A stretch of 58,571 nt of DNA from a virus (Duplodnaviria; Caudoviricetes): positions 1 to 58,571 of IMG/VR virus record IMGVR_UViG_3300030060_000055; one strand, given 5' to 3'. Of the stretch, positions 17,548 through 43,452 are shown piece by piece. Every line of letters starts with the position of its first letter. Position 1 is the stretch's first letter. Below the pieces are notes generated by a model. That model made no database searches, was not told where the DNA came from, and saw only the letters and a program-made list of their open reading frames with translations. A program made the position numbers and the translations under genes.

Positions 17548-17892
17548 ATGGCAGTAACAAAAGCAATAACAAGTTGTACCCCATACGTTAATAGTAATAG
17601 CAAAGTTGCTAAATGGGATATAGAAATGACATATGAAAACGATAGTGAAGGAGATGCTACTTACTATAAATCAAGATTTTCTACTACAGTTAATCAAAAA
17701 GATACTGATGCAGATGGTAATGTAACAACTAACTTTACACTTAAAGCTAAAGGTTCTTTTAGTAACGCTGATTTAGTAGCACTTTGTCCTGTATCGCAAT
17801 GGGATATAGTATTTGCTAGTCAGGTAGATAGTGTTATTACTAATCCATCAGTAGACAATACACCTGATAACGATTTTAACGTACCTAGTTAA
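17548..17892 (+). CDS. Putative tail fibre assembly protein
   Basis: Directly after tail fibre; AGGAG RBS. Confidence 0.5.
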   Translation: MAVTKAITSCTPYVNSNSKVAKWDIEMTYENDSEGDATYYKSRFSTTVNQKDTDADGNVTTNFTLKAKGSFSNADLVALCPVSQWDIVFASQVDSVITNPSVDNTPDNDFNVPS

Positions 17893-18593
17893 TGGCAGAA
17901 GTTACAGTACATAACATGCCTTCTGTTTACGTTATGGAAACAGAGATGCCTATAAGTATGGTGAATGACCTTAACGATTACCTTGATGAATACAAAGAAG
18001 ACCAAGATAAAAAATCATTAGCTAATACTTTAGTAGGGCAAATATCTCAAGGCGAACAACTACTAATGGATAACGAAGACTCCAGAGTAAAAGAATATTC
18101 TGAGTTTATATGTAGTCTTGGTGCTGATTATGTTAATTTCTTTTTTAATAGCACAGGCAACAAACTAAACAATCAAAAAGCTATAACAATAGATGAAACT
18201 TGGTCAGTACATAGTTATGAAGGCGACTACAATCCTATACACGATCATGGCACTAAAACAATCATGGGTATATCTACTACAGGTTGGACTAAAGTACCGC
18301 AACAAATATTAGAACAACCTACTGCTGGTTCACCACAATATTCTTTATATCACGCATCTGGTGATTGTGATGGCTACATAGCTTTTAATTATGGTCGTAA
18401 CGAATTAATGAATACAGAAAGACTAAGACCACCACAGTCTTTTATGATGAAGCCAGAAGTAGGAAAACTATTAGTATTTCCTTCTTGGTTACAACACATG
18501 GTATATCCTTTTAAGGGTGAAGGTGAAAGAAGAACAGTAGCATCTAACCTTAACTGTTGGGATGTGCAACCAACAGAAGATGCCACTAACTAG
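17892..18593 (+). CDS. 2OG-Fe(II) oxygenase-like protein
   Basis: YNPIHDH, PEVGKLLVFPSWLQHMVYP, ERRTVASN. Confidence 0.85.
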   Translation: MAEVTVHNMPSVYVMETEMPISMVNDLNDYLDEYKEDQDKKSLANTLVGQISQGEQLLMDNEDSRVKEYSEFICSLGADYVNFFFNSTGNKLNNQKAITIDETWSVHSYEGDYNPIHDHGTKTIMGISTTGWTKVPQQILEQPTAGSPQYSLYHASGDCDGYIAFNYGRNELMNTERLRPPQSFMMKPEVGKLLVFPSWLQHMVYPFKGEGERRTVASNLNCWDVQPTEDATN

Positions 18594-27139: not shown

Positions 27140-30100
27140 ATGGCAGACGAACCAAGAAACACACCAAATCCTTTTGAGATATTTGGTTCAAATACTGGTA
27201 ATGTACCTGACCAATTTGATATTTTTGATACATATCAAAGACCTCCAACACAAGACAATACTTCCGAGCAACTAGGCACTGATAAAGTTAATGATAGATC
27301 ATTACCTATATTTGGTCTTGCTACAAATAACTTTACCCCTGAAGAAAACGATTGGATAGACAGCGTTATAGCTGCACCCAGAGGTGTATTGCGTGGTGCT
27401 GCAAGAACTATACCCTTATTAGGTGAAGGTGTATGGGGCATATTAGATTTAGCAACTAACCTTTCAGGAAAAGAAGATTGGTTGAATCCTAGAGAAAGTG
27501 CATTCATAGCTAGAATGGATGAACTGCGTGATGCTATTGGCTATGAAGATAGTGTAGCTGGTAGAACAGGTGAAGCATTAGGTAGCATACTAGGTTTTGT
27601 AGGGTCAACTATACTTACAGGTGGTGCTGGAGCAGCATCAAGAGTAGGTGCTGGTTATAACGCACTAAAAGCTGGAGAGTTAACTGCTGGGGCAGCAACT
27701 AAAAGTTTAGCATCAGCTATGCAAATAGCAGCACCGGGTTCTGCTATAGGTGTAGGAGAAGCTAGTGGAAGGATGCGTGAGTATGAAGCTGAGATAGGTG
27801 AAGATTTATCTATAGCAGATAGAAACTTGGCAACAGCACTTGCTATACCTTTAGGTGCAACAGAGGTACTACCTATAGTTAGACCTTTATCTATATTATT
27901 TTCTAAGATAACTAAACGAGGATTGCCTAAAGAAACTATTGATAGCTATATGGATTTAGCTAAGTCAGCTGCCATAACTGGTACAGCAGAGGGTGTGCAA
28001 GAAGCATTAGCAAGTATAGGTCAAGATGCTATTGAGAAGGGTGTATATAACGAATCAGCAACTATAGGTGATTCTATAGCATCAGAGTTTGGATATGGTG
28101 GTGGTGCTGGTGCTATCTTTGACTTAGGTGTTAACTTACTTACTAAAGGTAGACCAAGAGGAGGTAGACCTGTTGGACCAGTAGAAGATGATACAGGTGG
28201 ATTATCAGGAACAGAAGCTACAGAGGTAGAAGATGCATCTACTTTAGATGAAGGTAGACCTAACACAGTAGCACAGTTTCAAGGTAGTGAAGAGATAGTA
28301 TTAGATAATGAATTTGAAGTGCCTAAAGATGCAGAGGGTGATGCGGTAATACCTCCTGATGTAAAAGTTGATGATGAAGTAGATATGTATGATGCTCTTG
28401 GCAATTCATACAAAGCTAGAGTTACTGCCGTATCAGATTCTGGTAGCATAAAAATTATAAATCAACAGGGTGAAGAAGTTGTTGCAAATATGAGTCCTAC
28501 AGCAACTACATCTAATGTTAATAATCCAAATTATGAGTTTAAAACAGTAAGCCCTGCATTTAAAAAGTCTGTTAATAATAAAAAAAATGTAAGTGAGTTA
28601 AATGAACAAGAAATAGCAGCAGCACAACTTGCATTAGAAGCACGTATTGAAGAGGCTGGTATTCAATTGATTGGGTTAGATGCACTACAAGATTTAAACG
28701 CTCTCAAACTACATCAAAAAAGAAGACAACAACCTTTAGATACAACTGTTGAGAATCAAACTAAATTAGGACCACAACAAGAAATAGAAGCACAAGCACA
28801 GGCATTTAAAGATGAAGTGCCAACAATACCTGATGCTGAAGAACAAATAAAAACAGAAGCTGTAAGACAACAGTTACAAGAAGTAAGTCCTGAACTGCAA
28901 GCAAATTTAGATCAAGAGGTAGAACTTGAAAGGCAAATACAACAAGCAGAAGATGCTGACAATTTGAATGAAGCAGATGATTTAAAAGAAAAAATAAATC
29001 AAGTAAAAGATAAACAAACAGAGTTAATTAAAAAACAAAAAACACCTATAAGAAGAAGTAGATTAATACAAACTTTTAATAGACCAGATGGTGAGACATT
29101 TACAGCAAGATTTCCTGATAGAGAAAGTGTAGATGCATTTAGTAATAAGAATGTAGTTAAAACTAAAAACAAATTAAATTTAACTACACCAGCATACAAT
29201 CAGTTTAAAACTAAATATGATTCTTATGTAGCTGAAGAAGTTAACTCAGCATATAAATCTGATACAAGAGAATTTAAGTTACAAAGCTTTAGAGACTTTG
29301 TGGCACAAGAACAAGGTTCAGTACAAGTAGGAGATATATTAAGTCAAACAACTCTTAAGAATATTGATCCTAATGATGCAGCGTTTAAACGATTCTTGTA
29401 TCTAAATACAAAGAAAAGAAATTTAAAAGACTTAAATGGTCTACAAAGAAAAGAAATTTTCAGACAAATAGAAGCTTTGCCTACACAAACAGCAGTCAAT
29501 ACAAGTATAGATAAAGCATTTAGTGAAAGCATAGATAATAGACAAGCATTTAGTAAAGCTGAAGCTATAAAAGCTAGAACTAAAGAGTTAGAAAATAAAT
29601 ATACCAAAGCACAACTATTAGATTTAGCTAAAACTAATGGTGTAAGTGAAGAGTTTATACAAGATGCAGTAGGCACTAGAGACAAAACAACTATAGCAAA
29701 AGGTATAGCAAGAAAAGAAATACAGAATCAAATATCAGCAGAAGAAAACTATGAACAAGTTGTAAGTAGAAGTGTTCCTAATGTACAAGTTAGGAAAGTA
29801 AAAACTAAAGCAGCTGACCAAGCAAGAGGATTTCAACAATATAGTGTGTTATATCCTGATGACACAATTATAAAAACTTTAGTGCCAGCAAATATAGATG
29901 TTGCAGATGCAAAGGAGCAAGCAGCTAGACAAACATTTACACAAAGAGTAGAAAGATTAGAAGAAGAAAATATAAAAACTAAAGATGTACCAGATGCATC
30001 ACAACAAGATTATATACAGGCTGTTACTAACTCACTGTTTAAACGCACTAACCCATTAGCAGAATTATTATCTATAGCTGGACCACAAGTAAAACAAAGT

Positions 30101-33100
30101 AGAACACCAGCAATACAAACAGAACAAGTCCAAGACCTAATAGAAGAAGCACCGCAGTTAGAAGCACCTGATCTATCTGGCATTAATTATCAGGGAAACT
30201 TATATAAGTTTAAAGACAATATAAATGCCAGTGATTTTATAATGAATTTAAGGCGCATAGCTAAAAGAACTATGCCTGATGCAGATGTAGTTGCAGTAGA
30301 TACATTGTTTAATGAAAGTGGTGAAGAAGTAGCTGGTGTAACTATTGGTGACATAATAGCTATAAATTTAGAAACTAATCCTGAAAATGGTAGACCTAGA
30401 TTTGCTTCACCTACAGATACTGTCTATCACGAAGCTGTTCATTACTTTATAAATAATAATTATTTTAAACCAGAAGTTTTACAAATCTTAGCTGAGAATC
30501 AACAAAGAATATTTGATATAGCTGAGACAAGATTTGGTGGAAAAGTAGGTACTTTTGAAGAAGCTGTTGCTATAGCATCAGGATATTACAACGAACAAAA
30601 ACTACAAGGCAGAACCCCTTTTGAATTTACACCCGGAATAAGAAGAGTATTTGAACCTCTATTTAAATTTTTTAATCAGGTTGCTAAATACTTTAGTGGC
30701 AAAAAATATAGGAAACTAGAGGATGTATTTGATGCTATAAGAACAGGTGATTTATATCAAGATGCTGTAGATAATCCTAAGATACTTAGTCCACCACAAC
30801 AACAGTTCCAAGAAGAATTGTTTAAACAAACTGGATATGTAGGCTCATACAAAGGCGGATCAATAACAGAAGATATGAATCTTGATTATGATTCAAATAG
30901 AAACATGACACCTTTGTATAGCAGAACACCTTCTTTTGGTTTACAAGAACTAAAGATTAGTGAAATGGGTCAAAGGATTGATAGGTTACAAGATGCTGTA
31001 AATAATACTAAAACTAAATCTACTAAAGCAGATAAATGGTTAACAACTAATAAACAAGGACAAGAGTTATTAACAGGCTCTAACGTGCCTTTTAATAAAC
31101 TTTACCTACAAGATACTAGATTAGATGAATGGTTGTCAGAACAAGTTAATGAAGATGGCAATCCAAGAGAAGTAAGCATAGATGAAATAAAAAATTATTT
31201 AAAAACTAATACTGGTTTTATATCTATGCAAATGACAGGCGGTGATACTACAACTTATGTAAGAGCAACTAATATAAATGAACAACAAACTATAGAGTAT
31301 TATCAAAATGAAATTTTAAATAGCACTATAGCTTTAAATCAATTTACGTCAGGTGTGCAATCACATTTAGTTAATAGGGATGATACATATAAAGCATTAA
31401 AAGAAGAGTTTTATACAGGACCAGACGATCAAGGTTCAGGAGCATTCTACGATTTAACAAGAAATTTAGACCAAATAGAAGAGTCTTATAAAAAATTAAA
31501 TCTTTCTATGAAACAACCTATAGGAAGAAACTTTGATGTTTTAAGACAAGCATTAAATGTAGAAACTAAATCACCTGATTTTCTTTTTTCAGATGCTAAA
31601 GCTGGAGAAATAGAGACAGCTATAAATCAATTAACTGTATCAGGGCAGTTGCTACAAAATACAGATGCTCTAAGAAAGGCTGATCCTGATGGTCATTTAG
31701 AAAAATTTTTAGTAGCTTTAGAAAATAATAAAATAGTTAGTGATCCTATAATAGAAATATTAGATGAGATAAATACAGACTCATTTGATGGCGGTAATAG
31801 GTACAATAAATTAGATTTACAAGATAATAAATTAACTCAATTAGTTAATGCAAGAAATCAAGCAAAAAGACAAAACGAATATTTTACAAGGTTGTTATAT
31901 GGAGAGGGTACAACAGGTGAACTTAATCCTGTAATAAGATCATCATTTGAATCTGCTGGATATGCAACAACTCCCGGTTTTAACATAGATACTACAAGTG
32001 GTAAGTTTACTGATATACAAAGATTAGCATTTCAAGCTATTAAAGATGGCAATCCTAATAAATCAGAAGGACAAATAATACAAGAACGTCTACAAGGAAT
32101 ACCACAAGAAGTTGCAAACTTTACAGAAGATCAATTAGCAGAGTTTACACGTAGACGTAGATTTGATGGTGAAGATTATGGAACTACAGTACACGTAGAA
32201 AATAGTAGAAATGTTGTTTACGCTTGGAATCCCGGTGCTTCGCAAGAACAAAAAGGATACTATTCAAATCCACATTTTCCTAACTCTATACGTAACGCTT
32301 TTGTTCATGCAAGAATAAAAGATGTTTATGTATTAGATGATAATAATACTTTAAAGAAAATATTATTTATAGATGAAGTGCAGTCTGATATGTATGCAGA
32401 TGTAAAGAAAGCTATAGACAAATACTTAAATGAATTAAATGATGGTGATCCTAGAAAAGAAGGAGGTGCATCTTCTTTGACAGAAGCAGAAGTAAAAGAA
32501 GCATTAGAAGGTTATCCAACTACTCAAGATATGCCAGCTGTACCACTTATAGGATTTCCTAAACCTAACTTTAATAAGTGGCAAGATTTTATTATTGAAG
32601 AAATGAATATGCTTGCTGTTAATGAAGGGTTTGATGGCATAGCTATTGCTAGTACAGCAATACAAGCAGAAAGAAATGGTAATAATCTTAAGAACAATTT
32701 TAACTTTTTAAGTTTTTATCCTTCAGTAAAACCATCAGATATTTCTACCAATCTTAGTACAGAATTAACTCATACTCCTTCTGGACAAACAGTAGAAGAA
32801 AGCACTTTATTACAACAGGGATATTTAACACAAGAAGAATTAAATCAAGACGATCCTGTTACTCCTAAATTTATTAGAAGTGCAGCAGCACAATATTTTG
32901 GTGATGTATTTTCAAGAGATACTAACTCATATGAATTTAAAACATATGTAAATTATGCACGTTTAGTAGGTATGACAGATGGATTTATTACTAAAGATAT
33001 GACTTTATCTTTACAAGAATCTAATCCTATTCGTGGGCATTTTGTAGATGGTGTGAATTATTTAGGTAGAGGTATTGGAGAGACACAAGTAGGTAGTGTA

Positions 33101-36100
33101 TCTTCTATATTACCAAATGATCTTGCTGATTTAATTATAGGTCAAATACAAAATGGCATCAGATCAAATATGCAAAGACCTGATATCAATGTAATTACAC
33201 AACAAGAAGCTAGGCAAGATCAAAATAATAATTTAACTATTGATACTTCAAGGTTATTACGTAATGCAGGTAATCAATCAGCTATAGGTGCTGGATATAT
33301 AAACTTAAGAAAGTTAACTGATAATCAAACACAACAGTTTTTTTCTAAGTCAGGATGGGATATATATAGCAATACATACCCTAATAAAATTAAAAAATCT
33401 TTAGATAAACTAGGTATTAAATATGAAACACAAGGTCAATCTGTTAAGGAAATAATACAAGATATATTTGGTGCAGATTCTGATGTGACTATTAATAATG
33501 TAGTAGATAGAGACTTTCATTCTAATAGATTATATCAAGCACCATATGACGAGTTAGTAGAGCAAGAACAATTTACTGTAGATGAAGTTATATTTAGAAC
33601 TAAATCTGAAATAGATGCTAGAAAAGGTAAACCTTTATTACTACAAACAGCATTTAAAGATAATGCTAGATTGCTTTATAGAGGTGAGCCAGCAAAGAAA
33701 CATCAATCAAGATTTAATGTGCCAGTATTTACTTTTGAAAGTGATGCACAAGTAGTAAACAACCCAGCGAAATATTCTAGTACACCAGCAGATGCACAGA
33801 AAGCTAGTTATTGGAAAAGAATTGTAAACTTTTTAGGTAACCTTACAGAGAGTAAATACTTTAGTGGTCTTGGTAATCTTGAACAAAGAAAAGAATATCA
33901 AAGATTAAAAGGATTAACTGCTGGTGAAATTAATAAAGCCGAAAAAGTAGCTAAAGATTTTTATAATGATCTAGGACAATATCTTAATCCTAGAAAATCA
34001 CAAAAAACTAAAGAAGAACTTAATAGAAATGTACAACAGTTTAATGCTTTTATAGAGGGTGGCATGGATGCAGACCCTGCACTTATAACAGATGAAGGTT
34101 TAAGAAAGGTTGCTGTTAAAAGTAAACAAGCTATAGATAGAATAGGACAGATGTTAGTTCAAAGAGGTGTACTACCTAGATCAAAGTTTGAAGAAAATAG
34201 AGGAACATATTTACCTTTGTTATATATGAAACATATTCTTAATAATCCAACAGGTACTAAGTTTTCATATACAAAAGCTAGGAAAGATTTAACAGATGAA
34301 ACTAAATTAATACTAGGTGATATAACAGAACTATCACCAGAGTATAGAGTTCTTGCTGGTGTACAAAGACCATTGCGTGATATGGCAATATTAGATTTTT
34401 TTAATCAAGTTTCTAAGAATCAAAACTGGGCAATACGTAATGATGATATGTTAGTTACTATTGAACAAGGTGGAGTAGAACAAAAGGTAAGTGCTTTGTG
34501 GTTATTAGAAGAAGCTAAAAGATTACAAGAACAAGCAACTTATTTTGAGAATGGTCAACCTGAACAAGCACTAGCTATGAGAAATCTTGCACAGCAATAT
34601 GAACAACTAGGAATGCCTGTAGCAGAAAGACTAGGATATGGTGCTGATAAACCATTAGATGAAAACTTTAAGAGACTACCTACTACTAAACAGTATGGAA
34701 TGATGAGAGGTGTGGCTGTAAGAAAAGAAATTTATGATGATGTCATAGGTACTTTTACTATGGGTGATACTGATAATGCTTTTAGTAAAACCATAGCTGC
34801 TTTAGAAAAAGGCACAAGTATTTGGAAACTTCTTAAAGTACCACTTAACCCACCAACTGTAGTACGTAACGTAGGTTCTAACATGATACTTATGAATATA
34901 GTTGGGGGTGTGCCTATACATAAAGTATTGCCTAGAATGAGACAAGCTATAGAACAAATAAGAAGTAATGGTAAGTATTGGAAGATAGCTGAAGATTACG
35001 GCATACAAAATACACAGTTTACAAATCAAGAAATGCTACAAATAAGTGAAGAGTATTTAGATTTGTTACAAGAAGTTGATCCACTAGGACCAGTAGCTAA
35101 GTTTTTTAGACTGCCAAAATTGTTAACTGCTAGAGTATTTAAAACTGCTGGTGATGTATATCAATTTACAGAATCTGTAGGTAAGACAGCAGTAATAATA
35201 GATGCTATGGAAAGACAAGGCATGTCAGAGTTTGATGCATTTCAACTTGCACAGAAAGCTTTGTTTGATTATTCCGATGTACCTATGGCTGGTAAGTTAT
35301 TTAGGAAAGCACCTATAGGTATGCCTTTCTTTACTTTTTATTACAAAGCATTTCCAGCTTTAGTTGAAGCAGCTATTAATCATCCATTTAGATATGCACC
35401 ATACGTAGCCTTATCAGCTGGACTTACTGCTTTATCTGCATATGCATTTGGTTTTGAAGATGATGAAGAAGAAAAGTTACAAAAAGGATTAGAGCCTTGG
35501 CTTGCTAAAAGAACAGGTGTTTATGTACTGCCTTTTAAAGACAGTGATGGAAGATATCAATTTTTAGATATAGGATATTTCTTTCCTTGGACTATGTACA
35601 CAGATGCAGTAAGAGATATAGCTGGTGGTGATTTCTTTGAAGCACAAAGGACAACAGGATTTTTATCAGGACCTTTTTCAGATATTTTCCTAGCAATTAA
35701 AACTAATAAAGACCCGTTTACACAACGTACTATATGGGATAAACGTGATCCTGTAGAAGATAGAATACAAAATATGTTTTGGTATATGTATAGTTTAGGT
35801 ATGCCTTCATGGTTAACACCTAATGGTGCTATAAGTAAAACTACTAAAGCATTACAAGATATACCTAGACCAACAGGCGCACCAGCAGATACTGTGCCAC
35901 AAGCATTGTTACGTTTTGTTGGAGTAAACGTATATGGATTAGATACAGAAGAAACTAGGATAAGAAATATTAAGAAGATGAGACAAGAGATTCTTGATAT
36001 ACAACAAAGATTTAAGTATGCAATGGCAAATCAATCTTATACACAAGAAAAGAAAGATAGATTAAGACAGAGATACATGCAGATGATTAAAGAAAAAGTA

Positions 36101-36181
36101 GATTTATTGCAAAGGTATAAAATAGATACAGCAATACCAAGACATATATTAGAAAGGGAGAGTAAATTCCAAGATGGATAG
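27140..36181 (+). CDS. Giant (3013 aa) internal virion / large polyvalent protein
   Basis: Hydrophobic Gly/Ala N-terminal region, HEAVH zincin motif, LFIDEVQSD motif, helical ejection-protein-like C-terminus. Confidence 0.8.
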   Translation: MADEPRNTPNPFEIFGSNTGNVPDQFDIFDTYQRPPTQDNTSEQLGTDKVNDRSLPIFGLATNNFTPEENDWIDSVIAAPRGVLRGAARTIPLLGEGVWGILDLATNLSGKEDWLNPRESAFIARMDELRDAIGYEDSVAGRTGEALGSILGFVGSTILTGGAGAASRVGAGYNALKAGELTAGAATKSLASAMQIAAPGSAIGVGEASGRMREYEAEIGEDLSIADRNLATALAIPLGATEVLPIVRPLSILFSKITKRGLPKETIDSYMDLAKSAAITGTAEGVQEALASIGQDAIEKGVYNESATIGDSIASEFGYGGGAGAIFDLGVNLLTKGRPRGGRPVGPVEDDTGGLSGTEATEVEDASTLDEGRPNTVAQFQGSEEIVLDNEFEVPKDAEGDAVIPPDVKVDDEVDMYDALGNSYKARVTAVSDSGSIKIINQQGEEVVANMSPTATTSNVNNPNYEFKTVSPAFKKSVNNKKNVSELNEQEIAAAQLALEARIEEAGIQLIGLDALQDLNALKLHQKRRQQPLDTTVENQTKLGPQQEIEAQAQAFKDEVPTIPDAEEQIKTEAVRQQLQEVSPELQANLDQEVELERQIQQAEDADNLNEADDLKEKINQVKDKQTELIKKQKTPIRRSRLIQTFNRPDGETFTARFPDRESVDAFSNKNVVKTKNKLNLTTPAYNQFKTKYDSYVAEEVNSAYKSDTREFKLQSFRDFVAQEQGSVQVGDILSQTTLKNIDPNDAAFKRFLYLNTKKRNLKDLNGLQRKEIFRQIEALPTQTAVNTSIDKAFSESIDNRQAFSKAEAIKARTKELENKYTKAQLLDLAKTNGVSEEFIQDAVGTRDKTTIAKGIARKEIQNQISAEENYEQVVSRSVPNVQVRKVKTKAADQARGFQQYSVLYPDDTIIKTLVPANIDVADAKEQAARQTFTQRVERLEEENIKTKDVPDASQQDYIQAVTNSLFKRTNPLAELLSIAGPQVKQSRTPAIQTEQVQDLIEEAPQLEAPDLSGINYQGNLYKFKDNINASDFIMNLRRIAKRTMPDADVVAVDTLFNESGEEVAGVTIGDIIAINLETNPENGRPRFASPTDTVYHEAVHYFINNNYFKPEVLQILAENQQRIFDIAETRFGGKVGTFEEAVAIASGYYNEQKLQGRTPFEFTPGIRRVFEPLFKFFNQVAKYFSGKKYRKLEDVFDAIRTGDLYQDAVDNPKILSPPQQQFQEELFKQTGYVGSYKGGSITEDMNLDYDSNRNMTPLYSRTPSFGLQELKISEMGQRIDRLQDAVNNTKTKSTKADKWLTTNKQGQELLTGSNVPFNKLYLQDTRLDEWLSEQVNEDGNPREVSIDEIKNYLKTNTGFISMQMTGGDTTTYVRATNINEQQTIEYYQNEILNSTIALNQFTSGVQSHLVNRDDTYKALKEEFYTGPDDQGSGAFYDLTRNLDQIEESYKKLNLSMKQPIGRNFDVLRQALNVETKSPDFLFSDAKAGEIETAINQLTVSGQLLQNTDALRKADPDGHLEKFLVALENNKIVSDPIIEILDEINTDSFDGGNRYNKLDLQDNKLTQLVNARNQAKRQNEYFTRLLYGEGTTGELNPVIRSSFESAGYATTPGFNIDTTSGKFTDIQRLAFQAIKDGNPNKSEGQIIQERLQGIPQEVANFTEDQLAEFTRRRRFDGEDYGTTVHVENSRNVVYAWNPGASQEQKGYYSNPHFPNSIRNAFVHARIKDVYVLDDNNTLKKILFIDEVQSDMYADVKKAIDKYLNELNDGDPRKEGGASSLTEAEVKEALEGYPTTQDMPAVPLIGFPKPNFNKWQDFIIEEMNMLAVNEGFDGIAIASTAIQAERNGNNLKNNFNFLSFYPSVKPSDISTNLSTELTHTPSGQTVEESTLLQQGYLTQEELNQDDPVTPKFIRSAAAQYFGDVFSRDTNSYEFKTYVNYARLVGMTDGFITKDMTLSLQESNPIRGHFVDGVNYLGRGIGETQVGSVSSILPNDLADLIIGQIQNGIRSNMQRPDINVITQQEARQDQNNNLTIDTSRLLRNAGNQSAIGAGYINLRKLTDNQTQQFFSKSGWDIYSNTYPNKIKKSLDKLGIKYETQGQSVKEIIQDIFGADSDVTINNVVDRDFHSNRLYQAPYDELVEQEQFTVDEVIFRTKSEIDARKGKPLLLQTAFKDNARLLYRGEPAKKHQSRFNVPVFTFESDAQVVNNPAKYSSTPADAQKASYWKRIVNFLGNLTESKYFSGLGNLEQRKEYQRLKGLTAGEINKAEKVAKDFYNDLGQYLNPRKSQKTKEELNRNVQQFNAFIEGGMDADPALITDEGLRKVAVKSKQAIDRIGQMLVQRGVLPRSKFEENRGTYLPLLYMKHILNNPTGTKFSYTKARKDLTDETKLILGDITELSPEYRVLAGVQRPLRDMAILDFFNQVSKNQNWAIRNDDMLVTIEQGGVEQKVSALWLLEEAKRLQEQATYFENGQPEQALAMRNLAQQYEQLGMPVAERLGYGADKPLDENFKRLPTTKQYGMMRGVAVRKEIYDDVIGTFTMGDTDNAFSKTIAALEKGTSIWKLLKVPLNPPTVVRNVGSNMILMNIVGGVPIHKVLPRMRQAIEQIRSNGKYWKIAEDYGIQNTQFTNQEMLQISEEYLDLLQEVDPLGPVAKFFRLPKLLTARVFKTAGDVYQFTESVGKTAVIIDAMERQGMSEFDAFQLAQKALFDYSDVPMAGKLFRKAPIGMPFFTFYYKAFPALVEAAINHPFRYAPYVALSAGLTALSAYAFGFEDDEEEKLQKGLEPWLAKRTGVYVLPFKDSDGRYQFLDIGYFFPWTMYTDAVRDIAGGDFFEAQRTTGFLSGPFSDIFLAIKTNKDPFTQRTIWDKRDPVEDRIQNMFWYMYSLGMPSWLTPNGAISKTTKALQDIPRPTGAPADTVPQALLRFVGVNVYGLDTEETRIRNIKKMRQEILDIQQRFKYAMANQSYTQEKKDRLRQRYMQMIKEKVDLLQRYKIDTAIPRHILERESKFQDG

Positions 36182-36611
36182 AGATAAATTAGTAAAAGAA
36201 ATAATACAAGACGAAGGGTTTGAATATGAAATATATTTAGACCATTTAGGATACCCAACATTTGGTGTTGGTCATTTAATTATTCCTAAAGATAAAGAAT
36301 ATGGCATGGATGTAGGAACACCAGTATCTGAAGAAAGAATATTAGAGTGTTTAAACGCTGACATAGACATAGTGTGTATGGAGTTAGATAGAAACATGTC
36401 ATGGTGGAGAGACTTAGATGATGATAAACAAAGAGTTATGGCGAACATGGCTTTCAACTTAGGTCTACCTAGATTGGGAGGATTCAAAAAATTTTTGAAG
36501 GCTATGGAGGAAGGAGATTTCCAAACAGCCGCTGTCGAAATGATGGATAGTAGATGGGCGACACAGGTAGGGAACAGAGCCAAAAGGTTGAGAGATAGAG
36601 TGGCATCGTGA
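36174..36611 (+). CDS. Endolysin, T4-type lysozyme (GH24)
   Basis: DEG...YLDHLGYPTFGVGH, NMAFNLG, SRWATQVGNRAKRL. Confidence 0.95.
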   Translation: MDRDKLVKEIIQDEGFEYEIYLDHLGYPTFGVGHLIIPKDKEYGMDVGTPVSEERILECLNADIDIVCMELDRNMSWWRDLDDDKQRVMANMAFNLGLPRLGGFKKFLKAMEEGDFQTAAVEMMDSRWATQVGNRAKRLRDRVAS

Positions 36612-36904
36612 CAGAAGCATTTGATCTAATAGCTAAGCTAGGACTGCCTATAGCTAGTGGATTAATAATGGCTTTCTTTATATTCTTAGTTATGAAACAA
36701 CTCATGGATGGTCTAGTAGATGAGATCAAAACCATAGAGGGTATATCTAAGATGCTTATAACAAGAGCATCAACAATGAACAACGACATCATACGTATAG
36801 ATACCAGTGTATCTAGCGCACTTAACATATCGCCAGACTTAGAACGCATAGCTAGAGCAGAGAACTTTGTAGAGGATGGCAGTATAGATGCAAGGCGAGA
36901 CTAA
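36608..36904 (+). CDS. Single-TM coiled-coil membrane protein
   Basis: LGLPIASGLIMAFFIFLV TM then coiled coil; GTGA overlap with endolysin. Confidence 0.75.
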   Translation: MTEAFDLIAKLGLPIASGLIMAFFIFLVMKQLMDGLVDEIKTIEGISKMLITRASTMNNDIIRIDTSVSSALNISPDLERIARAENFVEDGSIDARRD

Positions 36905-37158
36905 TGGATATAGCAAAGATAGTACAAGACTTTGGTTTTCCTGTAGTTATGGTAGTAGGTCTAGGATATTTCGTATACTTTGTATGGCAGACTATAACCA
37001 ATAAGATAGACCCAGCAGTTGCCGAAATGAAAACAACAATCATTAGGCTTACCGACCAGCTTAGATTGTTAGATCAAGATATGATTCGTTTACAACAAAA
37101 GGTAAACACAGTCTTAGAACTTAAAGAAAAAGAAAAGGAAGATGCAAAACAACGATAA
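36904..37158 (+). CDS. Single-TM coiled-coil membrane protein, paralogue of preceding ORF
   Basis: FGFPVVMVVGLGYFVYFVW TM; LDQDMIRL resembles MNNDIIRI. Confidence 0.75.
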   Translation: MDIAKIVQDFGFPVVMVVGLGYFVYFVWQTITNKIDPAVAEMKTTIIRLTDQLRLLDQDMIRLQQKVNTVLELKEKEKEDAKQR

Positions 37159-37609
37159 TATATTTGCGATTGTAGGTATAACATTGGTGTTATTAGTTGT
37201 GGTAATACAACAGTTACAGTCTGATGAAATGGTGCATCAATTTAAAAATCCTAGTTTTTCAGGTGTTGGTACATCCAGTCACTATCTAACTATAGAAAAC
37301 CAAGAGTTCTCTAGGAAAGAAGCTATACGTGAAGAGATACAAGCTTATGTAGAAGAACTAGAAAGAGAAGCTGATAACACTACGTTAGCTAGATTTATAC
37401 GTAACCTAGAGAGTAGAATATACGCACAACTAAGCAGACAATTAGTAGATAGTTTGTTTGGAGAGACTGCATCTGAGTTTGGTATCCTAGAACTAGAAGG
37501 CAACACCATAGAATACAAAGTAGAGGATGACAAAGTAACACTTATAATTACAGATGAAGAAGGCAATACAACAGAAATTACTGTACCTCTTGGTTCTTTT
37601 ACTTTCTAG
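37142..37609 (+). CDS. csgF: CsgF-like curli assembly component
   Basis: Signal-like hydrophobic stretch then MVHQFKNPSFSG (CsgF N-terminal NPxFGG-like motif); FIRNLESRIYAQLSRQLVDSLFG; ends TTEITVP; directly upstream of csgG. Confidence 0.8.
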   Translation: MQNNDNIFAIVGITLVLLVVVIQQLQSDEMVHQFKNPSFSGVGTSSHYLTIENQEFSRKEAIREEIQAYVEELEREADNTTLARFIRNLESRIYAQLSRQLVDSLFGETASEFGILELEGNTIEYKVEDDKVTLIITDEEGNTTEITVPLGSFTF

Positions 37610-38360
37610 TTGTTCATTAATCATACCCCCATTAGATAATGGGTTGCCCCCGATAAGGAACATTGAGCCAGCAGAAGTTGGTTCTCTATTAACTAAACTA
37701 GCAGAAGTATCTAAACCTGAACGCAAACCTGTAGTAGCTATATATCCTTCCTCGTTTAAAGATAATACAGGACAGCGTAGAAGTAATAGCCAGTATGCTA
37801 GTTTTAGCACAGCAGTAACACAAGCACCTGATGCATATCTTATTAGAGCATTACAACACTCTAATGTATTTGATGTAGTAGAGCGTACAGGACTAGATAA
37901 TCTTACTAAAGAACGACAGATTATACGTACAACTCGTGAGTCATTTGATGAAAAACAAAAGGTAAAACCTTTATTGTTTGCTGGTTTATTAATGGAAGGT
38001 GGTGTTGTAAGTTATGAAACCAATGTTAAATCAGGTGGTGCTGGTGCAAGATACTTAGGTATAGGTGCATCAAAACAATATAGACAGGACTCAGTTACTA
38101 TATCTTTACGTACAGTTTCAGTAAGCACAGGTAAAATATTGTTAGAAGTGTTAGTAACTAAGTCAATTCTTAGTGCATCTATCTCTTCAGATGTGTTCAG
38201 ATTTTATACAAATAATACTGAATTAGTTGAAATTGAAAGTGGTATAGTAGAGAATGAGTCTATAAATATTGCTTTGCAGATGGCTATTGAGTTAGCAGTT
38301 CTACAAACAATAGAGGAGGGTTATGAAAAAGGTTATTGGAAACAAAAAGACCACACTTAA
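37554..38360 (+). CDS. csgG: CsgG curli secretion outer-membrane lipoprotein
   Basis: Lipobox LLSSC; FKDNTGQR, FSTAVTQ, VERTGLDNLTKERQII, SGGAGARYLGIG, YRQDSVTISLRTVSVSTG. Confidence 0.93.
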   Translation: MKKAIQQKLLYLLVLLLSSCSLIIPPLDNGLPPIRNIEPAEVGSLLTKLAEVSKPERKPVVAIYPSSFKDNTGQRRSNSQYASFSTAVTQAPDAYLIRALQHSNVFDVVERTGLDNLTKERQIIRTTRESFDEKQKVKPLLFAGLLMEGGVVSYETNVKSGGAGARYLGIGASKQYRQDSVTISLRTVSVSTGKILLEVLVTKSILSASISSDVFRFYTNNTELVEIESGIVENESINIALQMAIELAVLQTIEEGYEKGYWKQKDHT

Positions 38361-39063
38361 TTTATTGTTTCTACTAATATCTTTTAGCGTATATACAGCT
38401 GACAATGAAGTATACATAGATCAGTCAGGTGCAACATCTAACTTAGATATAGAACAAGTTGGCGGTGGTGGTAATATTATTGGTGGATCAGATGCTACAG
38501 CTGGTGCTTCTAATATGACTCCATTGGATTTAGATGGTGCAACTATGACGCTAGACATATTACAGAAAGGTGCATCAAATAAATTTCTTGGTGATATATG
38601 GGCAGATACTTACACAGGTTACTTCTCATTTATAGGTGATAGTAATACATTCAATATGTCTACTGATGAAACCAATGCCACAGGTGCAGATGGTTCTAAT
38701 GTAAATGTACAGGTCACAGGTAATACAAATACTATGACACTCAATCATGCTATGACTGCACTTGCTGCTAATTTAGATTTAGATTGGATAGTGCAAGGTG
38801 GGGGTAATAGTATTACAGCAGCTATAGATGTAGATGGTGCTACTAACTACATGGATATTGATGGTAATGATAATACTGTAACCTATGATGGTGATGGATA
38901 TGCTGGTGGTTATTTCTACCTAGATCATACAGGTGGATCAAGAACATTTAATATAGATCAGGAATCTACATCTGATAATGATTGGCTCAAGATTACATCT
39001 GTTGGCTCTAATGGTACAGTTTGCGTTACTCAGTCAGACGCAACAACTTCATTCGTCTGTTGA
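38323..39063 (+). CDS. Curlin-like secreted beta-repeat protein
   Basis: Signal peptide (..FSVYTA/DNEVYIDQSG); ~22-aa repeats with (Q/T/D)xGxxN turns; adjacent to csgG. Confidence 0.7.
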   Translation: MKKVIGNKKTTLNLLFLLISFSVYTADNEVYIDQSGATSNLDIEQVGGGGNIIGGSDATAGASNMTPLDLDGATMTLDILQKGASNKFLGDIWADTYTGYFSFIGDSNTFNMSTDETNATGADGSNVNVQVTGNTNTMTLNHAMTALAANLDLDWIVQGGGNSITAAIDVDGATNYMDIDGNDNTVTYDGDGYAGGYFYLDHTGGSRTFNIDQESTSDNDWLKITSVGSNGTVCVTQSDATTSFVC

Positions 39064-40093
39064 TATAGGTTCTATATCTGAACTCAGAGGCAATGCACAA
39101 GTCTTAAGAGACAAACCTTATGGTGCTGAACTAGAGTTTAACATTCAACAAATGGATGATGTCCGCACAGAGGCGGGCAGAGTTGCCATTACTTTTGAAG
39201 ATAGTTCTACAGTTAAATTAACTGAACATTCTAAGTTAGTTATAGATGAATATATCTATGACCCTGACCCATCAAAATCTAAGATGGCACTTAAGTTTGC
39301 TAGTGGTACAGCACGTTTTATTACAGGCAAGTTTAATAATAAAAGTAATATATCTATTAAAACACCTACTGCTGATATAGCTATTAGGGGTACAGACTTT
39401 ACTTGTACAGTAGATGAATTAGGTAGAAGTCTAGTTATATTGTTGCCTGATGAGAATGGTATATCTAGTGGCGAGATAGTTGTAGCTACAGCTATGGGTA
39501 GCGTTACATTAAACAAACCTTATCAAGCTACCACAGTATCTGTATATGAAAACAATCCTACTAAACCTGTTACGTTAGATATATCACTAGACTTAATAGA
39601 TAACATGTTGATTGTTAATCCTCCGCAAGAAACAGAACAATCAATAGAGGAAACAAGAACACAATCATCTGTAGATTATTTAGAGTTTGATGATCTTGAT
39701 ATAGATTATTTGAATGAAGATTTTCTTGATGCAGAGGCAGACCTTGAGTTCACAGAACTAGATGTAAACTATTTAGATGTAAATTTTTTAGAAGATTTAC
39801 TTAATGTATTAGATGCATTAGCTATATCTAAAGAAGAAGATCAATTAAAACAAGGCGGTGTAGGTATTCGTATAGTTGGTACGGAAATAGGACAAGATAA
39901 AGATACACAGATTACAACTATAGTTACAGGGCAGACTATAAGTTTAAACAGAACAGTAAATCAAAGTGCAAGATTAAATCTTGATGGTTCTAATAGTTAT
40001 ACGATTATACTTATACAAGATGGTGTTGCTAATACAGTTAAGATTAATGGTGGTTCATCTACAACAATAACAATTAAACAAGGGTCAGGATGA
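38978..40093 (+). CDS. FecR-domain periplasmic protein with acidic linker and beta-rich C-terminus
   Basis: DDVRTEAGRVAITFEDSSTVKLTEHSKLVID, IKTPTADIAIRGTDF; start codon uncertain. Confidence 0.85.
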   Translation: MIGSRLHLLALMVQFALLSQTQQLHSSVDIGSISELRGNAQVLRDKPYGAELEFNIQQMDDVRTEAGRVAITFEDSSTVKLTEHSKLVIDEYIYDPDPSKSKMALKFASGTARFITGKFNNKSNISIKTPTADIAIRGTDFTCTVDELGRSLVILLPDENGISSGEIVVATAMGSVTLNKPYQATTVSVYENNPTKPVTLDISLDLIDNMLIVNPPQETEQSIEETRTQSSVDYLEFDDLDIDYLNEDFLDAEADLEFTELDVNYLDVNFLEDLLNVLDALAISKEEDQLKQGGVGIRIVGTEIGQDKDTQITTIVTGQTISLNRTVNQSARLNLDGSNSYTIILIQDGVANTVKINGGSSTTITIKQGSG

Positions 40094-41856
40094 AGAAAAG
40101 TATTATATTTATAGGTTTGTTTATTACGCTAGGTTCAATATATATTTATCAACCTGTAGCCTATGAAATATTAAAACTAAAAACCTTTGATGCTTTTGTA
40201 GAAGAGAAAGAACCTTCAGGATATTTTACTGTACTTAATATAACTGAAGATGATATAACTAACGAGGGCGGTTATCCTTTACCAAGACAGAGGTTAAGTG
40301 AGATACAAGCGCAGTTGTTAGAAAATGGTGCTTCTGGTATTGGCTGGGTAATCGCCTTCCCACAGCCAGACAGATTTGGTGGTGATGTAGAGTTTAAACA
40401 ATCTTTAGAGCAGGCTGCGTCCGTGCTGGCAATGTTTGAAGGTAACAATGGCTTATATCCTCCTACTACTGGTACTGTAATATTGGGTGATGATATAGGC
40501 GGGATGCAAATAGAAGGTGTGATCCAGAACATTGATATGTTTAAACAATCAGCAGCGCAGGGTTTGGCTGTAGCCCGGACCGATGTAGATAATCTTATAC
40601 GTAGACTTCCTTTGTTAATGCGTACACCTGATGGATGGACACCAGCTTACGGAACAGAAGTATTAAAGATACTGGCTGGTGCAGATACTTATGTTATTAA
40701 AACAAATGATAATGGATTAGAAGAGATACGAGTTAGAGGTTTGCCACCTGTGCCTGTAGATTCTTTAGGTCGTAAGTGGATTAGTTGGGTTAATACACCG
40801 CAGACAGACTTAGCTACTATGGATGTACAAGATAAGTTTGTGTTTATAGGTTTTACAGCTAAAGGTATTATGCCTCAGTTAGCTACGCCTATAGGATTAT
40901 TAGAACCACATAAAATACAAGCAAGCTTAGCTGAAAGTATACTTATACAAGATAGTCCTTACATACCTGACTACGCTCTAGCACTAGAGATATTATTATT
41001 TATTGCCTCTGTCGTATTTGTTTGGCTTGTATTAAACGTATTTGGTATTACTTTAGGGATATCATCCTTTGTTATAGTTTTTGCTTCTACGGCTTTCTAT
41101 GGCGTTTATACGATACAAAGTGGTATATTAATAGATGTAACTTGGGCATTGATATCACAATTTATTACTGCAAGTGTTGCTTTCTACTTAAGATTTAGAG
41201 AACAATACAAGTTAAGACAACAAATAAAAAAACAATTTGAACATTATCTTGACCCAAGACAGGTAAAAGAATTACAAAAAAATCCTAGCTTGTTAAAGTT
41301 AGGGGGAGAAAAACGATATGCTACCTTTTTATTTACTGATGTTAGGGGATTCACTTCTATGTCAGAGTCTCTTGAACCGGAAGACGTTACCTACATTATG
41401 AATAAAGCTTTGACTGCACAACAAAGTGCGGTGCAAAAACATGGTGGTATGGTAGACAAATATATAGGTGATGCAATGATGGCAATATTTAATGCACCTA
41501 TAGACCAAGACTTCCATGAAAATAAAGCTATAGATTGTGCTGTGGATATACAGCGTAACATGGAAAGTTTAAACGTAGAGTTAGCGGACCGGGGTATCCC
41601 AGCTGTAGCTATTGGTATAGGTATAAACACAGGCTATGCTGTAGTAGGAAACATGGGAAGTGAATCTAGATTTGATTACACAGCTATCGGTGATGCTGTA
41701 AATATAGGAGCAAGACTAGAAAGCGGTACAAAAGAGGCTGGTGTTGATGTGTTAATAGGATATAACACTGCTATAAAAAGTGATTATGAGTTAAGATTAT
41801 TAGAACCTTTACATGTAAAAGGTAAGGAGAAAGCATTAGATGTTTACACACTATAA
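40090..41856 (+). CDS. CHASE2-domain class III adenylate/guanylate cyclase
   Basis: N-terminal TM, CHASE2 (YPLPRQRL, FPQPDRFGGD, DVDNLIRRLPL), three TMs, catalytic FTDVRGFT, DKYIGDAMM, DYTAIGDAVNIGARLE. Confidence 0.93.
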   Translation: MKKSIIFIGLFITLGSIYIYQPVAYEILKLKTFDAFVEEKEPSGYFTVLNITEDDITNEGGYPLPRQRLSEIQAQLLENGASGIGWVIAFPQPDRFGGDVEFKQSLEQAASVLAMFEGNNGLYPPTTGTVILGDDIGGMQIEGVIQNIDMFKQSAAQGLAVARTDVDNLIRRLPLLMRTPDGWTPAYGTEVLKILAGADTYVIKTNDNGLEEIRVRGLPPVPVDSLGRKWISWVNTPQTDLATMDVQDKFVFIGFTAKGIMPQLATPIGLLEPHKIQASLAESILIQDSPYIPDYALALEILLFIASVVFVWLVLNVFGITLGISSFVIVFASTAFYGVYTIQSGILIDVTWALISQFITASVAFYLRFREQYKLRQQIKKQFEHYLDPRQVKELQKNPSLLKLGGEKRYATFLFTDVRGFTSMSESLEPEDVTYIMNKALTAQQSAVQKHGGMVDKYIGDAMMAIFNAPIDQDFHENKAIDCAVDIQRNMESLNVELADRGIPAVAIGIGINTGYAVVGNMGSESRFDYTAIGDAVNIGARLESGTKEAGVDVLIGYNTAIKSDYELRLLEPLHVKGKEKALDVYTL

Positions 41857-41888
41857 AAAATTGGCTGCGCCCGCACGTGGTGGTGAAG

Positions 41889-42290
41889 ATGTTTAAAATA
41901 AGTGTCGGACTTGCAATCGCTCTGGTCTTGTCTGGTATATGGATATGGAGTTTAAACGCAACTATAACGCAGCTTCAGGCAAATCAGATCGTACTAGAAA
42001 CTGAAGTCGCTAAACAGAATGAGCAAATAAAAAAGAATTTGGAACAGCAAGCGCAGACTTATGCGCAGATAGACAGCTTAACAAAGAAGAATCAGGAGTC
42101 TATGCGTGAAGTAAACGCACTCAAGCAGACATTCGCTAAGCATGACTTGGATAATCTTGCCCTAGCAAAACCCAAGATGATACAAACTAGAGTCAATAGA
42201 GCGAGCAAGAGAGTGTTCGATGACCTAGTTAAGATAACTAACCCTACACAATTTGATGAGACAGATGAAGAAACTAGCAATACTGATTAG
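41889..42290 (+). CDS. Inner-membrane spanin (Rz-like)
   Basis: N-terminal TM then long coiled coil; overlaps downstream lipoprotein. Confidence 0.8.
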   Translation: MFKISVGLAIALVLSGIWIWSLNATITQLQANQIVLETEVAKQNEQIKKNLEQQAQTYAQIDSLTKKNQESMREVNALKQTFAKHDLDNLALAKPKMIQTRVNRASKRVFDDLVKITNPTQFDETDEETSNTD

Positions 42291-42615
42291 CTTTTGCCTG
42301 TTGGCAAGTGGATGTTCGTTGATGAGACAGGCAGTCAAGCCTATAGAAGTGGTCAACATAGAGGAAAGACCGCCTATGTTTCACCCTCCATTGCCTATGG
42401 AAATGCAGATGATGGAGTTCGATTGGGAGGTTCTAACGCCTGAAATCATGCAAGAGTACCTCACCCTTGTCGAAGAAGGTAAAGCACCTAGACAGGCTTA
42501 TTATGCGCTTACAACGAAGGATTATGAGAACATCAGCAACAACATGGCTGAGATCAAGAGATACACAAGGGATATCCTTGCCATCGTAGAATACTACAGA
42601 GACTTAGACGAGTAG
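42265..42615 (+). CDS. Outer-membrane spanin lipoprotein (Rz1-like)
   Basis: MKKLAILISFCLLASGC lipobox; Pro-rich segment; YYALTTKDYENISNN. Confidence 0.8.
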   Translation: MKKLAILISFCLLASGCSLMRQAVKPIEVVNIEERPPMFHPPLPMEMQMMEFDWEVLTPEIMQEYLTLVEEGKAPRQAYYALTTKDYENISNNMAEIKRYTRDILAIVEYYRDLDE

Positions 42616-42616
42616 A

Positions 42617-42829
42617 TTACTTTGTTCTCCATATTCTGTAACCATTAGGAGAAGGTTCTTCGGTCTTTCTTACTGTAACTGACCAACCCAAACGTATCAT
42701 TGCATGTCTATATCTTTCAGAATCTTTTTTTGTGTTGACCCATATAGAGTCACCCACTTCCATCTTCTCAATGTCTTTTCTAGTTTCTGACCTTGCTTTT
42801 TGTATTGGTATATCTTTATCTATTTTCAT
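42617..42829 (-). CDS. Small putative DNA-binding protein
   Basis: KIDKDIPI, KMEVGDSI, GYRIWRTK motifs. Confidence 0.65.
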   Translation of the reverse strand: MKIDKDIPIQKARSETRKDIEKMEVGDSIWVNTKKDSERYRHAMIRLGWSVTVRKTEEPSPNGYRIWRTK

Positions 42830-42837
42830 TTGTTTTC

Positions 42838-43452
42838 CTATGTTGCTTTTGCTTTTGGATAAGGCATGATTGGGTAATTAAGATTGGCTTTAGCTTTTTT
42901 TGTAAAAGATTTATCTCCCACAAATATTACATATCTGTGTTTTAAAGACCTTAATCTGTAACCTACATCATCACCATATTCTTCCTCCATTTGTTTGTAA
43001 GTTTTGCCTCTGTATGTAGCATGATGCAGATGTGGTTTCGACTTTAAATAAATTTCTTTAATAGGTTTAGTAATACCTGTGTATAAAAAATTTGTGGCTT
43101 GATACACAATACCTACATGACCTTGTGTTGAGTCTGCATAACTAACAACAATTTTGTTGCCTAACTTCTTTAGAGAATTGCCTACTAAAAAAGATGCTTC
43201 GTTCTTGTTGTTATTTTTTAAAACCAATCTATTCAACTCTATAACATCTTTTTTAAAATGCTCTCCACATACTCCTTTGAGTAGCGTGTGTGATGGTGGT
43301 ATTCCATAACTACATATACCTAATAAATCTTTATCAGAATAAAGACCATAAGCAATTTGTAGTGGTGGCATCCTCTTTGCGTAATGAATATCTAATATAA
43401 AAGGTTTTGTTTCTTCATAAGAAACTTTTTTAATTTCATATTTTTCTTTCAC
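42838..43452 (-). CDS. Mom-like (GNAT fold) DNA modification protein
   Basis: HYAKRMP, IELNRL, NEASFLVGNSLKKL, VSYADSTQGHVGIVYQATNFLYTG, KHRYVIF. Confidence 0.75.
   Translation of the reverse strand: MKEKYEIKKVSYEETKPFILDIHYAKRMPPLQIAYGLYSDKDLLGICSYGIPPSHTLLKGVCGEHFKKDVIELNRLVLKNNNKNEASFLVGNSLKKLGNKIVVSYADSTQGHVGIVYQATNFLYTGITKPIKEIYLKSKPHLHHATYRGKTYKQMEEEYGDDVGYRLRSLKHRYVIFVGDKSFTKKAKANLNYPIMPYPKAKAT

Follow-up and report, generated by a model that had tools for sequence, protein, structure and literature searches.

Genes for CsgF, CsgG and a 'curli-associated protein' were described in pelagimyophages in 2020, together with a proposal of 'sibling capture' (PMC7029224), and in 2022 a lysis-timing pore was proposed for phage Melnitz (PMC9004378). 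Also in 2022, Wittmers et al. (PMC9599517) described in podoviruses of the HTVC023P type a type VIII secretion system (T8SS) region of marine origin, with the order small membrane protein(s)-CsgF-CsgG-curlin-FecR-cyclase and without CsgE, in which the curlin gene is named 'Curli repeat fiber (CsgA/B)'; according to the available text of that paper, FecR and the cyclase were noted in the region, and its genes were present in metatranscriptomes and at each of the 65 GOV2.0 stations. We studied the corresponding gene of the IMG/VR virus record IMGVR_UViG_3300030060_000055, whose whole stretch of 58,571 nucleotides was analyzed and is called here the window. The gene lies at 38323..39063 on the positive strand and would code for a secreted curlin-repeat (CsgA/B-like) protein of 246 aa, with an ATG start and a mature length of ~220 aa. 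Our results indicate that this curlin is probably an exported curlin-type substrate of the phage's own CsgG-CsgF pore, i.e., part of a type VIII (curli) secretion cassette.

The cassette of the window agrees in every defining point with the T8SS region as given in the available text of PMC9599517: the genome is of the HTVC023P type, the gene order is the same and CsgE is missing. The present genome holds one curlin gene and lacks the optional second CsgA/B of that region; we see nothing essential that separates our gene from the published 'CsgA/B' gene. The cassette, the 'CsgA/B' gene and the missing CsgE have been known since 2022 (PMC9599517). What can be added is the predicted curlin-type solenoid, the family-wide cysteines, which behave as short disulfides would, and, in the present phage lineage, the joining of the cassette to the lysis gene chain with an overlap into fecR. 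In the main text of PMC9599517 the words cysteine, disulfide, signal peptide, lysozyme and spanin have 0 occurrences each, so that we regard the Cys pair, the fecR overlap and the lysis flanks as added detail. These additions are minor yet useful for experiment design; among the papers on pelagiphage curli that were listed from 2022 on, we found no experimental follow-up.

The T4-like myoviruses HTVC008M and Melnitz carry homologous curlins in the same slot between csgG and fecR. Full-length BLASTP alignments gave 32% identity (E 1e-17) with HTVC008M AGE60350 ('curlin-associated protein, CsgB') and 29% identity (E 2e-17) with Melnitz gp101 ('curlin associated repeat protein'). Unlike the curlin of the window, those of the two myoviruses end ...Q-x-D and have no tail; family representatives of their type carry the Cys pair in mid-protein, 8-9 residues apart, and in both phages a second, longer curlin gene follows fecR and the cassette is not beside lysis genes. 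CsgA R15.5 of Pontibacter korlensis (8c50), the best structural and profile match of our curlin, is likewise a multi-repeat beta-solenoid. It ends on a half repeat (PMC10192328), as the curlin studied here, in which 17 predicted strands were counted and no Gly-rich N22 leader was seen, also appears to do. R15.5 has near-perfect centrosymmetric repeats and, in the available text of the same paper, no cysteines described, whereas in our curlin the middle repeats are degenerate, the arcs contain insertions (residues 55-67, 115-123 and 143-151) and the tail is putatively Cys-stapled.

With Escherichia coli CsgA/CsgB the cassette of the window has in common the CsgG/CsgF pair, the Q-x-G-x-x-N turns and, in some of the curlin repeats, the repeat kernel. 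The differences are ~8.5 predicted repeats, the lack of an N22 targeting segment, a genome with neither CsgE nor CsgC, and the attachment of FecR and a CHASE2 cyclase, which distinguishes the phage cassette from the E. coli system. The CsgA of E. coli comprises five repeats and is not known to contain cysteine.

Linkage of the curlin gene to csgF, csgG and fecR

The genes of the region are all in the positive strand, in the order endolysin, two small membrane proteins, CsgF, CsgG, curlin, FecR, CHASE2 cyclase and spanins. From the endolysin gene through the cyclase gene each overlaps the next by 1-86 nt, the overlap between csgG and the curlin gene being 38 nt. A strong Shine-Dalgarno sequence, GAGGAGGG, is placed 4 nt 5' of the curlin ATG. 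The gene directly upstream (37554..38360, positive strand) codes for a CsgG-type outer-membrane lipoprotein pore (Pfam CsgG 2.7e-52, 177.6 bits; NCBIfam CsgG 1.8e-49) with the lipobox LSSCS and 48.7% identity to HTVC008M CsgG. It is preceded by the gene for a CsgF-type pore-associated protein (37142..37609, positive strand), which matched Pfam CsgF at 3e-18 over profile positions 3-132 of 132 and phrog_35372 at 8.9e-45.

A word-indexed search revealed 2907 proteins related to the curlin at E <= 0.001, from marine sources including Tara; among the 120 of these relatives that were listed, none carried a precomputed Pfam domain. An exhaustive search, again at E <= 0.001, gave 209 cluster representatives. 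Among 185,579 species genomes there was none with a close relative, and the nearest ESM Atlas clusters were 100% viral. IMG/VR held 486 contigs with a curlin relative, and the close loci were counted in the best 80 of them, which showed 84-98% identity. Their genes were arranged as (tmA, tmB,) csgF, csgG, curlin, fecR, (cyclase): csgG was directly upstream of the curlin gene in 77/80, the other 3 beginning at the curlin gene, and fecR was downstream in 78/80, the other 2 stopping there. The arrangement was also found in 87 loci from three divergent clades, 86 of which had csgG upstream and 85 of which had fecR downstream. Taking close and divergent loci together, the curlin gene came straight after csgG in 163 of the 167, and the remaining 4 begin at the curlin gene. 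Because the order csgF-csgG-curlin was invariable, we infer that the curlin would leave the cell through the CsgG-CsgF pore.

A preliminary description of this locus, made from the letters of the window, had noted that csgE and csgC were missing. This proved right for the whole genome: a six-frame search of the 58,571 bases gave no match to CsgE (PF10627) or CsgC (PF10610) at E <= 1, while the E. coli controls were found. The absence is no peculiarity, since the available texts report that all Alphaproteobacteria lack csgC, csgD and csgE (PMC3521004) and that CsgE is lacking in these phage clusters (PMC9599517). The preliminary description had recognized neither the phage nature of the DNA nor the cassette as a published one.

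Repeats, predicted fold and cysteine pair of the curlin

The N-terminus of the curlin, MKKVIGNKKTT / LNLLFLLISFSV / YTA followed by DNE, has by eye the layout of a Sec signal peptide, as the preliminary description had also read it: the n-region is rich in Lys, the hydrophobic core spans 12 residues and position -1 is A. The presumed cut is after YTA, and the putative signal peptide comprises residues 1-26 (38323..38400, positive strand). Among the curlin homologues the length and sequence of this part vary and conservation starts at ADNE; in the AlphaFold2 (AF2) model of our protein, the predicted local distance difference test score (pLDDT) was 49-52 across residues 1-20.

The same description had quoted five strings as repeats of ~22-23 aa. 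All of them are present within residues 126-237, at 126-142, 153-169, 175-191, 198-214 and 221-237, with spacings of 27, 22, 23 and 23 residues. The curlin has 8 G-x-x-N motifs against 2.7 +/- 1.5 in 5000 residue shuffles (at least 8 in 15/5000) and 6 occurrences of a turn-plus-strand pattern against 0.94 +/- 0.95 (6 reached in 1/5000); the repeat pattern exceeds chance expectation for these two patterns, which were picked post hoc, after inspection of the sequence. The ladder of conserved residues had been called degenerate. This stands for the middle repeats only, since the N-terminal half (residues 28-125), which had been overlooked, holds the most canonical repeat and invariant Q, G and N columns.

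That first, canonical repeat, NEVYIDQ-SGATS-NLDIEQ-VGGGGN (residues 28-51; 38404..38475, positive strand), carries Q34, Q45, G48 and N51, and the segment LDILQKGASN carries G83 and N86. In an alignment of 54 family sequences the invariant columns were these six positions plus G105 and G204, and residues 27-54 form the best-conserved block of the protein, with a mean top-residue frequency of 0.61 vs 0.34-0.52 elsewhere. The curlin kernel motif given in PMC10192328, N/S-x-hydrophobic-x-hydrophobic-x-Q, is matched by NEVYIDQ and SNLDIEQ, i.e., it is perfect in repeat 1 (N28-Q34 and S39-Q45), and it is also present at Q81, Q213 and Q237. The available text of that paper describes a 'degenerate' curlin class with arc insertions, and an N22-like leader as the exception; we would place our curlin in this class, the assignment being our own.

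The AF2 model, built with the family alignment, reached a pLDDT of 85.4 and a predicted template-modelling score of 0.81, with 17 strands in strand-turn-strand order, which we read as about 8.5 repeats. A profile of 54 family members compared with the PDB sequences matched two solved CsgA proteins, that of P. korlensis (8c50_A; E 9.1e-11) and that of E. coli (8enq_A; E 0.004), before the next match at E 0.012. In a VIA structural search of 48,161 chains, the top match was again 8c50_A (Z 18.1; 197 residues aligned, 22% identity, root mean square deviation, rmsd, 8.7). The top four matches in BFVD had E values from 3e-6 to 7e-5 and template-modelling (TM) scores of 0.59-0.72; three of them are phage proteins named 'Curlin associated' and one is unnamed. 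The curlin-like beta-solenoid of the preliminary description, which had called for a structure prediction, is thus supported: the prediction, which is of good confidence, makes the protein a divergent curlin-type beta-solenoid.

The curlin has a very high content of Asp, Gly, Thr and Asn, with Asp-rich arcs such as NYMDIDGNDNTVTYDGDG, and its mature part (38401-39060) has 30 Asp/Glu vs 4 Lys/Arg, a net charge of -26. Cation binding by so acidic a protein in seawater is conceivable. The calcium-dependent beta-helical antifreeze protein 3p4g was among the structural matches of the model (Z 13.1).

The protein ends VCVTQSDATTSFVC, with the Cys pair of the preliminary description at residues 234 and 246; the loop that they delimit (CVTQSDATTSFVC; 39022..39060, positive strand) is presumably closed by a disulfide. 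For the tail, 120 homologues were listed, 118 of which reach the last repeat, two fragments being unscorable. A C-x11-12-C motif stood at the C-terminus in 115/118 of these close homologues, and the three exceptions had Trp for the first Cys, a truncated sequence and a different end. Cysteines were also surveyed across 150 cluster representatives (P0077, P0121-P0269); 38 of 215-300 aa were kept, and 112 fragments and outliers were dropped. With the N-terminus removed by a crude motif rule, the mature proteins had 0 cysteines in 11 cases, 2 in 25 and 4 in 2, never an odd number, and the paired cysteines were 4-13 residues apart in every Cys-bearing representative. An exported protein with short intramolecular disulfides should show just such even counts and close pairs, as an oxidizing compartment would predict. 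The disulfide between Cys234 and Cys246 very probably forms, as judged from these statistics.

The place of the pair was not the same throughout the family. It was in a C-terminal loop of 11-13 residues, as in our curlin, in 6 representatives; in a C-terminal loop of 4-9 residues directly past the last Gln in 7, plus one four-Cys protein; in a mid-protein arc, the myophage type, in 8; and in an insertion of the last repeat in 4, plus the other four-Cys protein. The C-terminal staple is therefore a feature of the clade and not of the family. The alternation V-C-V-T-Q suggests that Cys234 points outward from the last strand. In the AF2 model residues 239-246 were coil, and the pLDDT of the last 6-residue block averaged 61.

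The 3' end of the curlin gene is dual-coding. The 86 nt at 38978..39063 (positive strand) hold the last 28 curlin codons and the stop as well as, in the +1 frame, the first 28 codons of fecR, whose signal-peptide-like N-terminus is thus encoded within the last repeat and the Cys tail of the curlin. In 73/73 evaluable sequences (the window plus 72 of the 80 close loci), the fecR ATG opened the last 86 nt of the curlin gene, stop codon included. Conservation of the curlin tail is its own and not imposed by fecR, because the FecR N-terminus varies far more than the nearly invariant tail.

Proposed export, possible fibre formation and alternative functions

If the curlin is a substrate of the phage pore, it would be made late, with the lysis genes, from the overlapping gene chain. 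Its N-terminus suggests that it would be exported by Sec and cleaved after Ala26. From the gene order, it would then cross the periplasm unfolded without CsgE and exit through the outer membrane of the infected SAR11-type host by way of the phage's CsgG-CsgF pore. Outside the cell it is predicted to fold into a two-sheet beta-solenoid, in which Cys234, on the outward side of the terminal strand, would bond with Cys246 and staple the 11-residue tail, as the pairing statistics suggest. The highly conserved first repeat and the conserved last strand, which ends in Gln237, would serve as head and tail faces, with which subunits either stack as a fibre or are held on CsgF. We give the formation of real fibres somewhat less than an even chance, the remaining weight going to a short or single surface-bound unit. 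A complex prediction with two copies of residues 27-246 had a score of 0.01 and gave no answer, neither for nor against stacking.

Several results weigh against this explanation. The curlin does not reach the cut-off of Pfam PF07012 Curlin_rpt (15.9 vs 20.7 bits, E 0.0011); this match below the cut-off, at 38401-38463, was the sole one of Curlin_rpt in the genome, hmmscan of the protein at E <= 0.1 listed none, and PHROG and NCBIfam had no match for it. The Curlin_rpt model misses 12% of true CsgA/B, according to the available text of PMC3521004. In the middle repeats the Gln is gone and only G-x-x-N remains. Chains of the SufBD type, which are non-amyloid beta-helices, matched the model at Z 15-16 with an rmsd of 3.0-3.2 vs 8.7 for CsgA; the fold alone is therefore no proof of a curlin, as such helices score nearly as high and with a better rmsd. 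Foldseek of the model against the PDB gave no match at E <= 0.001, and the curli fibre entries did not come up in it. With regard to stacking, the net charge disfavours it unless seawater cations screen the charge, and the C-terminal tail, if stapled, could obstruct the growing end. Melnitz, which has a homologous curlin, showed no clumping in cytograms or by transmission electron microscopy in the available text of PMC9004378, and secretion, a fibre or a disulfide is reported for no phage member in the literature available to us.

Some of these points would fit a generic secreted beta-helix, such as an adhesin or a surface protein that binds calcium, with csgG as a mere neighbour and not as its exporter: Curlin_rpt is below its cut-off, many non-curli beta-helices match the model at Z 10-16, and Asp, Gly, Thr and Asn are very abundant. 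We consider this reading very improbable given the E 9.1e-11 match of the family profile to a solved CsgA, the fixed slot straight after csgG in 163/167 loci, and relatives above the Curlin_rpt cut-off, such as the Melnitz homologue with 26 bits vs 20.7. The curlin might instead be the plug or timer of a lysis pore, in which CsgG-CsgF permeabilizes the outer membrane late and the curlin gates the channel in place of CsgE. The absence of CsgE from the genome agrees with this, as does the position of the cassette between the endolysin and the Rz/Rz1 spanins, overlapping the endolysin gene chain, with the same placement or an AC...Rz1-lysozyme layout in related contigs; a secretin- or pinholin-like role is argued in the available text of PMC9004378. 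Yet the same cassette is away from lysis genes in the T4-like HTVC008M and Melnitz, the outer membrane is already dealt with by the spanins, a solenoid of 220 residues with conserved stacking repeats exceeds what a plug needs, and CsgF, which a bare pore would not need, is kept everywhere (an argument found in the available text of PMC7029224). We therefore judge a plug improbable, if less so than a generic beta-helix.

Another alternative, which sharpens an idea of the preliminary description, concerns the state of the exported protein. The disulfide-stapled tail might fold back antiparallel on the last rung and block head-to-tail growth, so that the curlin would be a capped, non-polymerizing surface unit, a stub on CsgF-CsgG that is read by the periplasmic FecR protein and signals through the CHASE2 cyclase to cyclic AMP (cAMP) in the infected cell. 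The tail could be written as a hairpin with a 3-residue turn and C234 opposite C246 (VCVTQS-DAT-TSFVC), and relatives show a compatible pattern, ...Q[SN]D-x-G-T...; the combination of tail and Cys is nearly invariant in the clade (115/118), and imperfect terminal rungs or blocking additions are what distinguishes non-polymerizing beta-solenoids in the available text of PMC10192328. The curlin, fecR and cyclase genes are joined by overlaps of 86 and 4 nt, the FecR domain resembles (Z 15.8, rmsd 2.7) the domain by which PupR contacts its outer-membrane transducer, and the Melnitz cultures without clumping also suit a capped unit. Against it, the tail is not a strand in the AF2 model, where residues 239-246 are low-confidence coil, and the terminal repeats are the most conserved, as stacking faces would be. 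Moreover, other clades in the same cassette slot end directly after the last Gln without a tail, or have a Cys loop of 4-9 residues, too short for a capping strand, or a mid-protein pair, so that the cap is not a property of the family; and nothing physically links the curlin to FecR. A capped unit is for these reasons unlikely, though the best placed of the three alternatives. Still a little less likely is its full extension, in which a knob capped by Cys234-Cys246 on CsgF-CsgG would head a lysis-timed path through the FecR/PupR-like protein and the CHASE2 cyclase to cAMP; to the same small degree, such a path could be analogous to TonB-transducer/FecR signalling with a cyclic-nucleotide output.

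SAR11 is the most abundant bacterial group of the surface ocean, and to our knowledge it has no curli genes of its own. With export through the phage pore, which we favour, a phage-given outer-membrane pore plus a fibre-like protein could alter SAR11 aggregation, superinfection, nutrient leakage or lysis timing globally. The case for an ocean-scale effect of phage curli was already argued in print in 2020-2022.

Neighbouring genes and the phage genome

The cassette is preceded by a gene for an endolysin of the T4-lysozyme type (36174..36611, positive strand; Pfam Phage_lysozyme 1.1e-11; phrog_7), which overlaps the next gene by 4 nt; tblastn with the endolysin gave 1576 generic matches and was uninformative. 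The two following genes (36608-36904 and 36904-37158, positive strand) code for paralogous small single-pass membrane proteins of 98 and 84 aa, both matching phrog_18771 (8.7e-22 and 1.2e-25), each with a single membrane helix at the N-terminus and a helical tail that is charged. Their homologues always precede csgF, in HTVC008M, in Melnitz and in the viral loci. They are labelled 'histidine kinase' in the available text of PMC9599517, a label not supported by their sequences: Pfam and NCBIfam showed no kinase domain in them, and 84-98 aa are too short for one. A holin-like role is possible, since they follow the endolysin.

Downstream of the curlin gene, fecR (38978..40093, positive strand) codes for a putative exported FecR-domain protein of 371 aa (Pfam FecR 4e-13; AF2 pLDDT 67.8). 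In the model an N-terminal helix, the signal peptide, is followed by a PupR-like domain, a disordered linker that is acidic and rich in D, E and L (residues 208-295), and a small beta domain; the signal peptide stands in place of the anti-sigma/transmembrane part. Residues 57-211 matched the C-terminal cell-surface signalling domain of PupR, 6ovm_R, over 134 aligned residues. The C-terminus, ...I-x-I-x-Q-x-x in all clades, looks like the ends of curlins. A curlin repeat at this end was considered and dropped: hhalign against the curlin family gave E 0.091, 0.016 and 0.029 with probabilities <3%, and the model of the C-terminal domain matched small beta-sandwiches only (Z 3.5-3.8).

The fecR gene overlaps by 4 nt the gene for a CHASE2 sensor with a class III adenylate/guanylate cyclase (40090..41856, positive strand; Pfam CHASE2 1.8e-25, Guanylate_cyc 4.3e-18). 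An Rz/Rz1-like spanin pair follows after a 20-nt gap (41877..42615, positive strand; phrog_739 3.1e-10, phrog_812 2.6e-15). The position of the cassette between endolysin and spanins, or the AC...Rz1-lysozyme layout, recurs in related contigs, e.g., L006, L008, L042, L047, L072 and L079; L013, L014, L057 and L067. In a promoter and terminator scan of 35800-43000 no terminator was convincing, and shuffled sequences had more promoter-like sites than the region itself. An empty insertion site of the cassette was sought in HTVC023P 44000-60878, a region too little collinear to show one.

The record is 100% complete according to CheckV, and PHROG matches across the genome included terminase, portal, major head protein, tail proteins, primase/helicase, Erf recombinase and exonuclease. 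The major capsid protein (6357-7271) was 66.3% identical to that of HTVC027P, 63.0% to HTVC023P and 60.7% to 023Pt_psg01; on these identities, the genome is that of a SAR11-type marine podovirus of the HTVC023P type. The same protein had 72.8% identity, above that with the cultured pelagiphages, to three GenBank records of 65,014 bp, Synechococcus phage MinM2, Planktothrix phage Pag-Yong1 and Planktothrix phage Pra-JY27; their host labels differ despite the identical length, which is perhaps worth checking.

Among the sequencing runs listed, 20 marine or estuary DNA runs, from 16 studies, contained at least half of the words sampled from the record, and no RNA run did. A 3013-aa open reading frame (27140-36181) overlaps the endolysin gene by 8 nt at its end and was without a PHROG match at E <= 1e-5; its presumed product is a giant protein of the virion interior or of ejection. 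The auxiliary genes code for a GroES-like co-chaperonin (3915-4301), a 2-oxoglutarate-Fe(II) oxygenase (17892-18593), a Mom-like DNA modification protein (42838-43452) and a CobS-like ATPase (54836-56089), the last of which carries the PHROG label 'porphyrin biosynthesis'.

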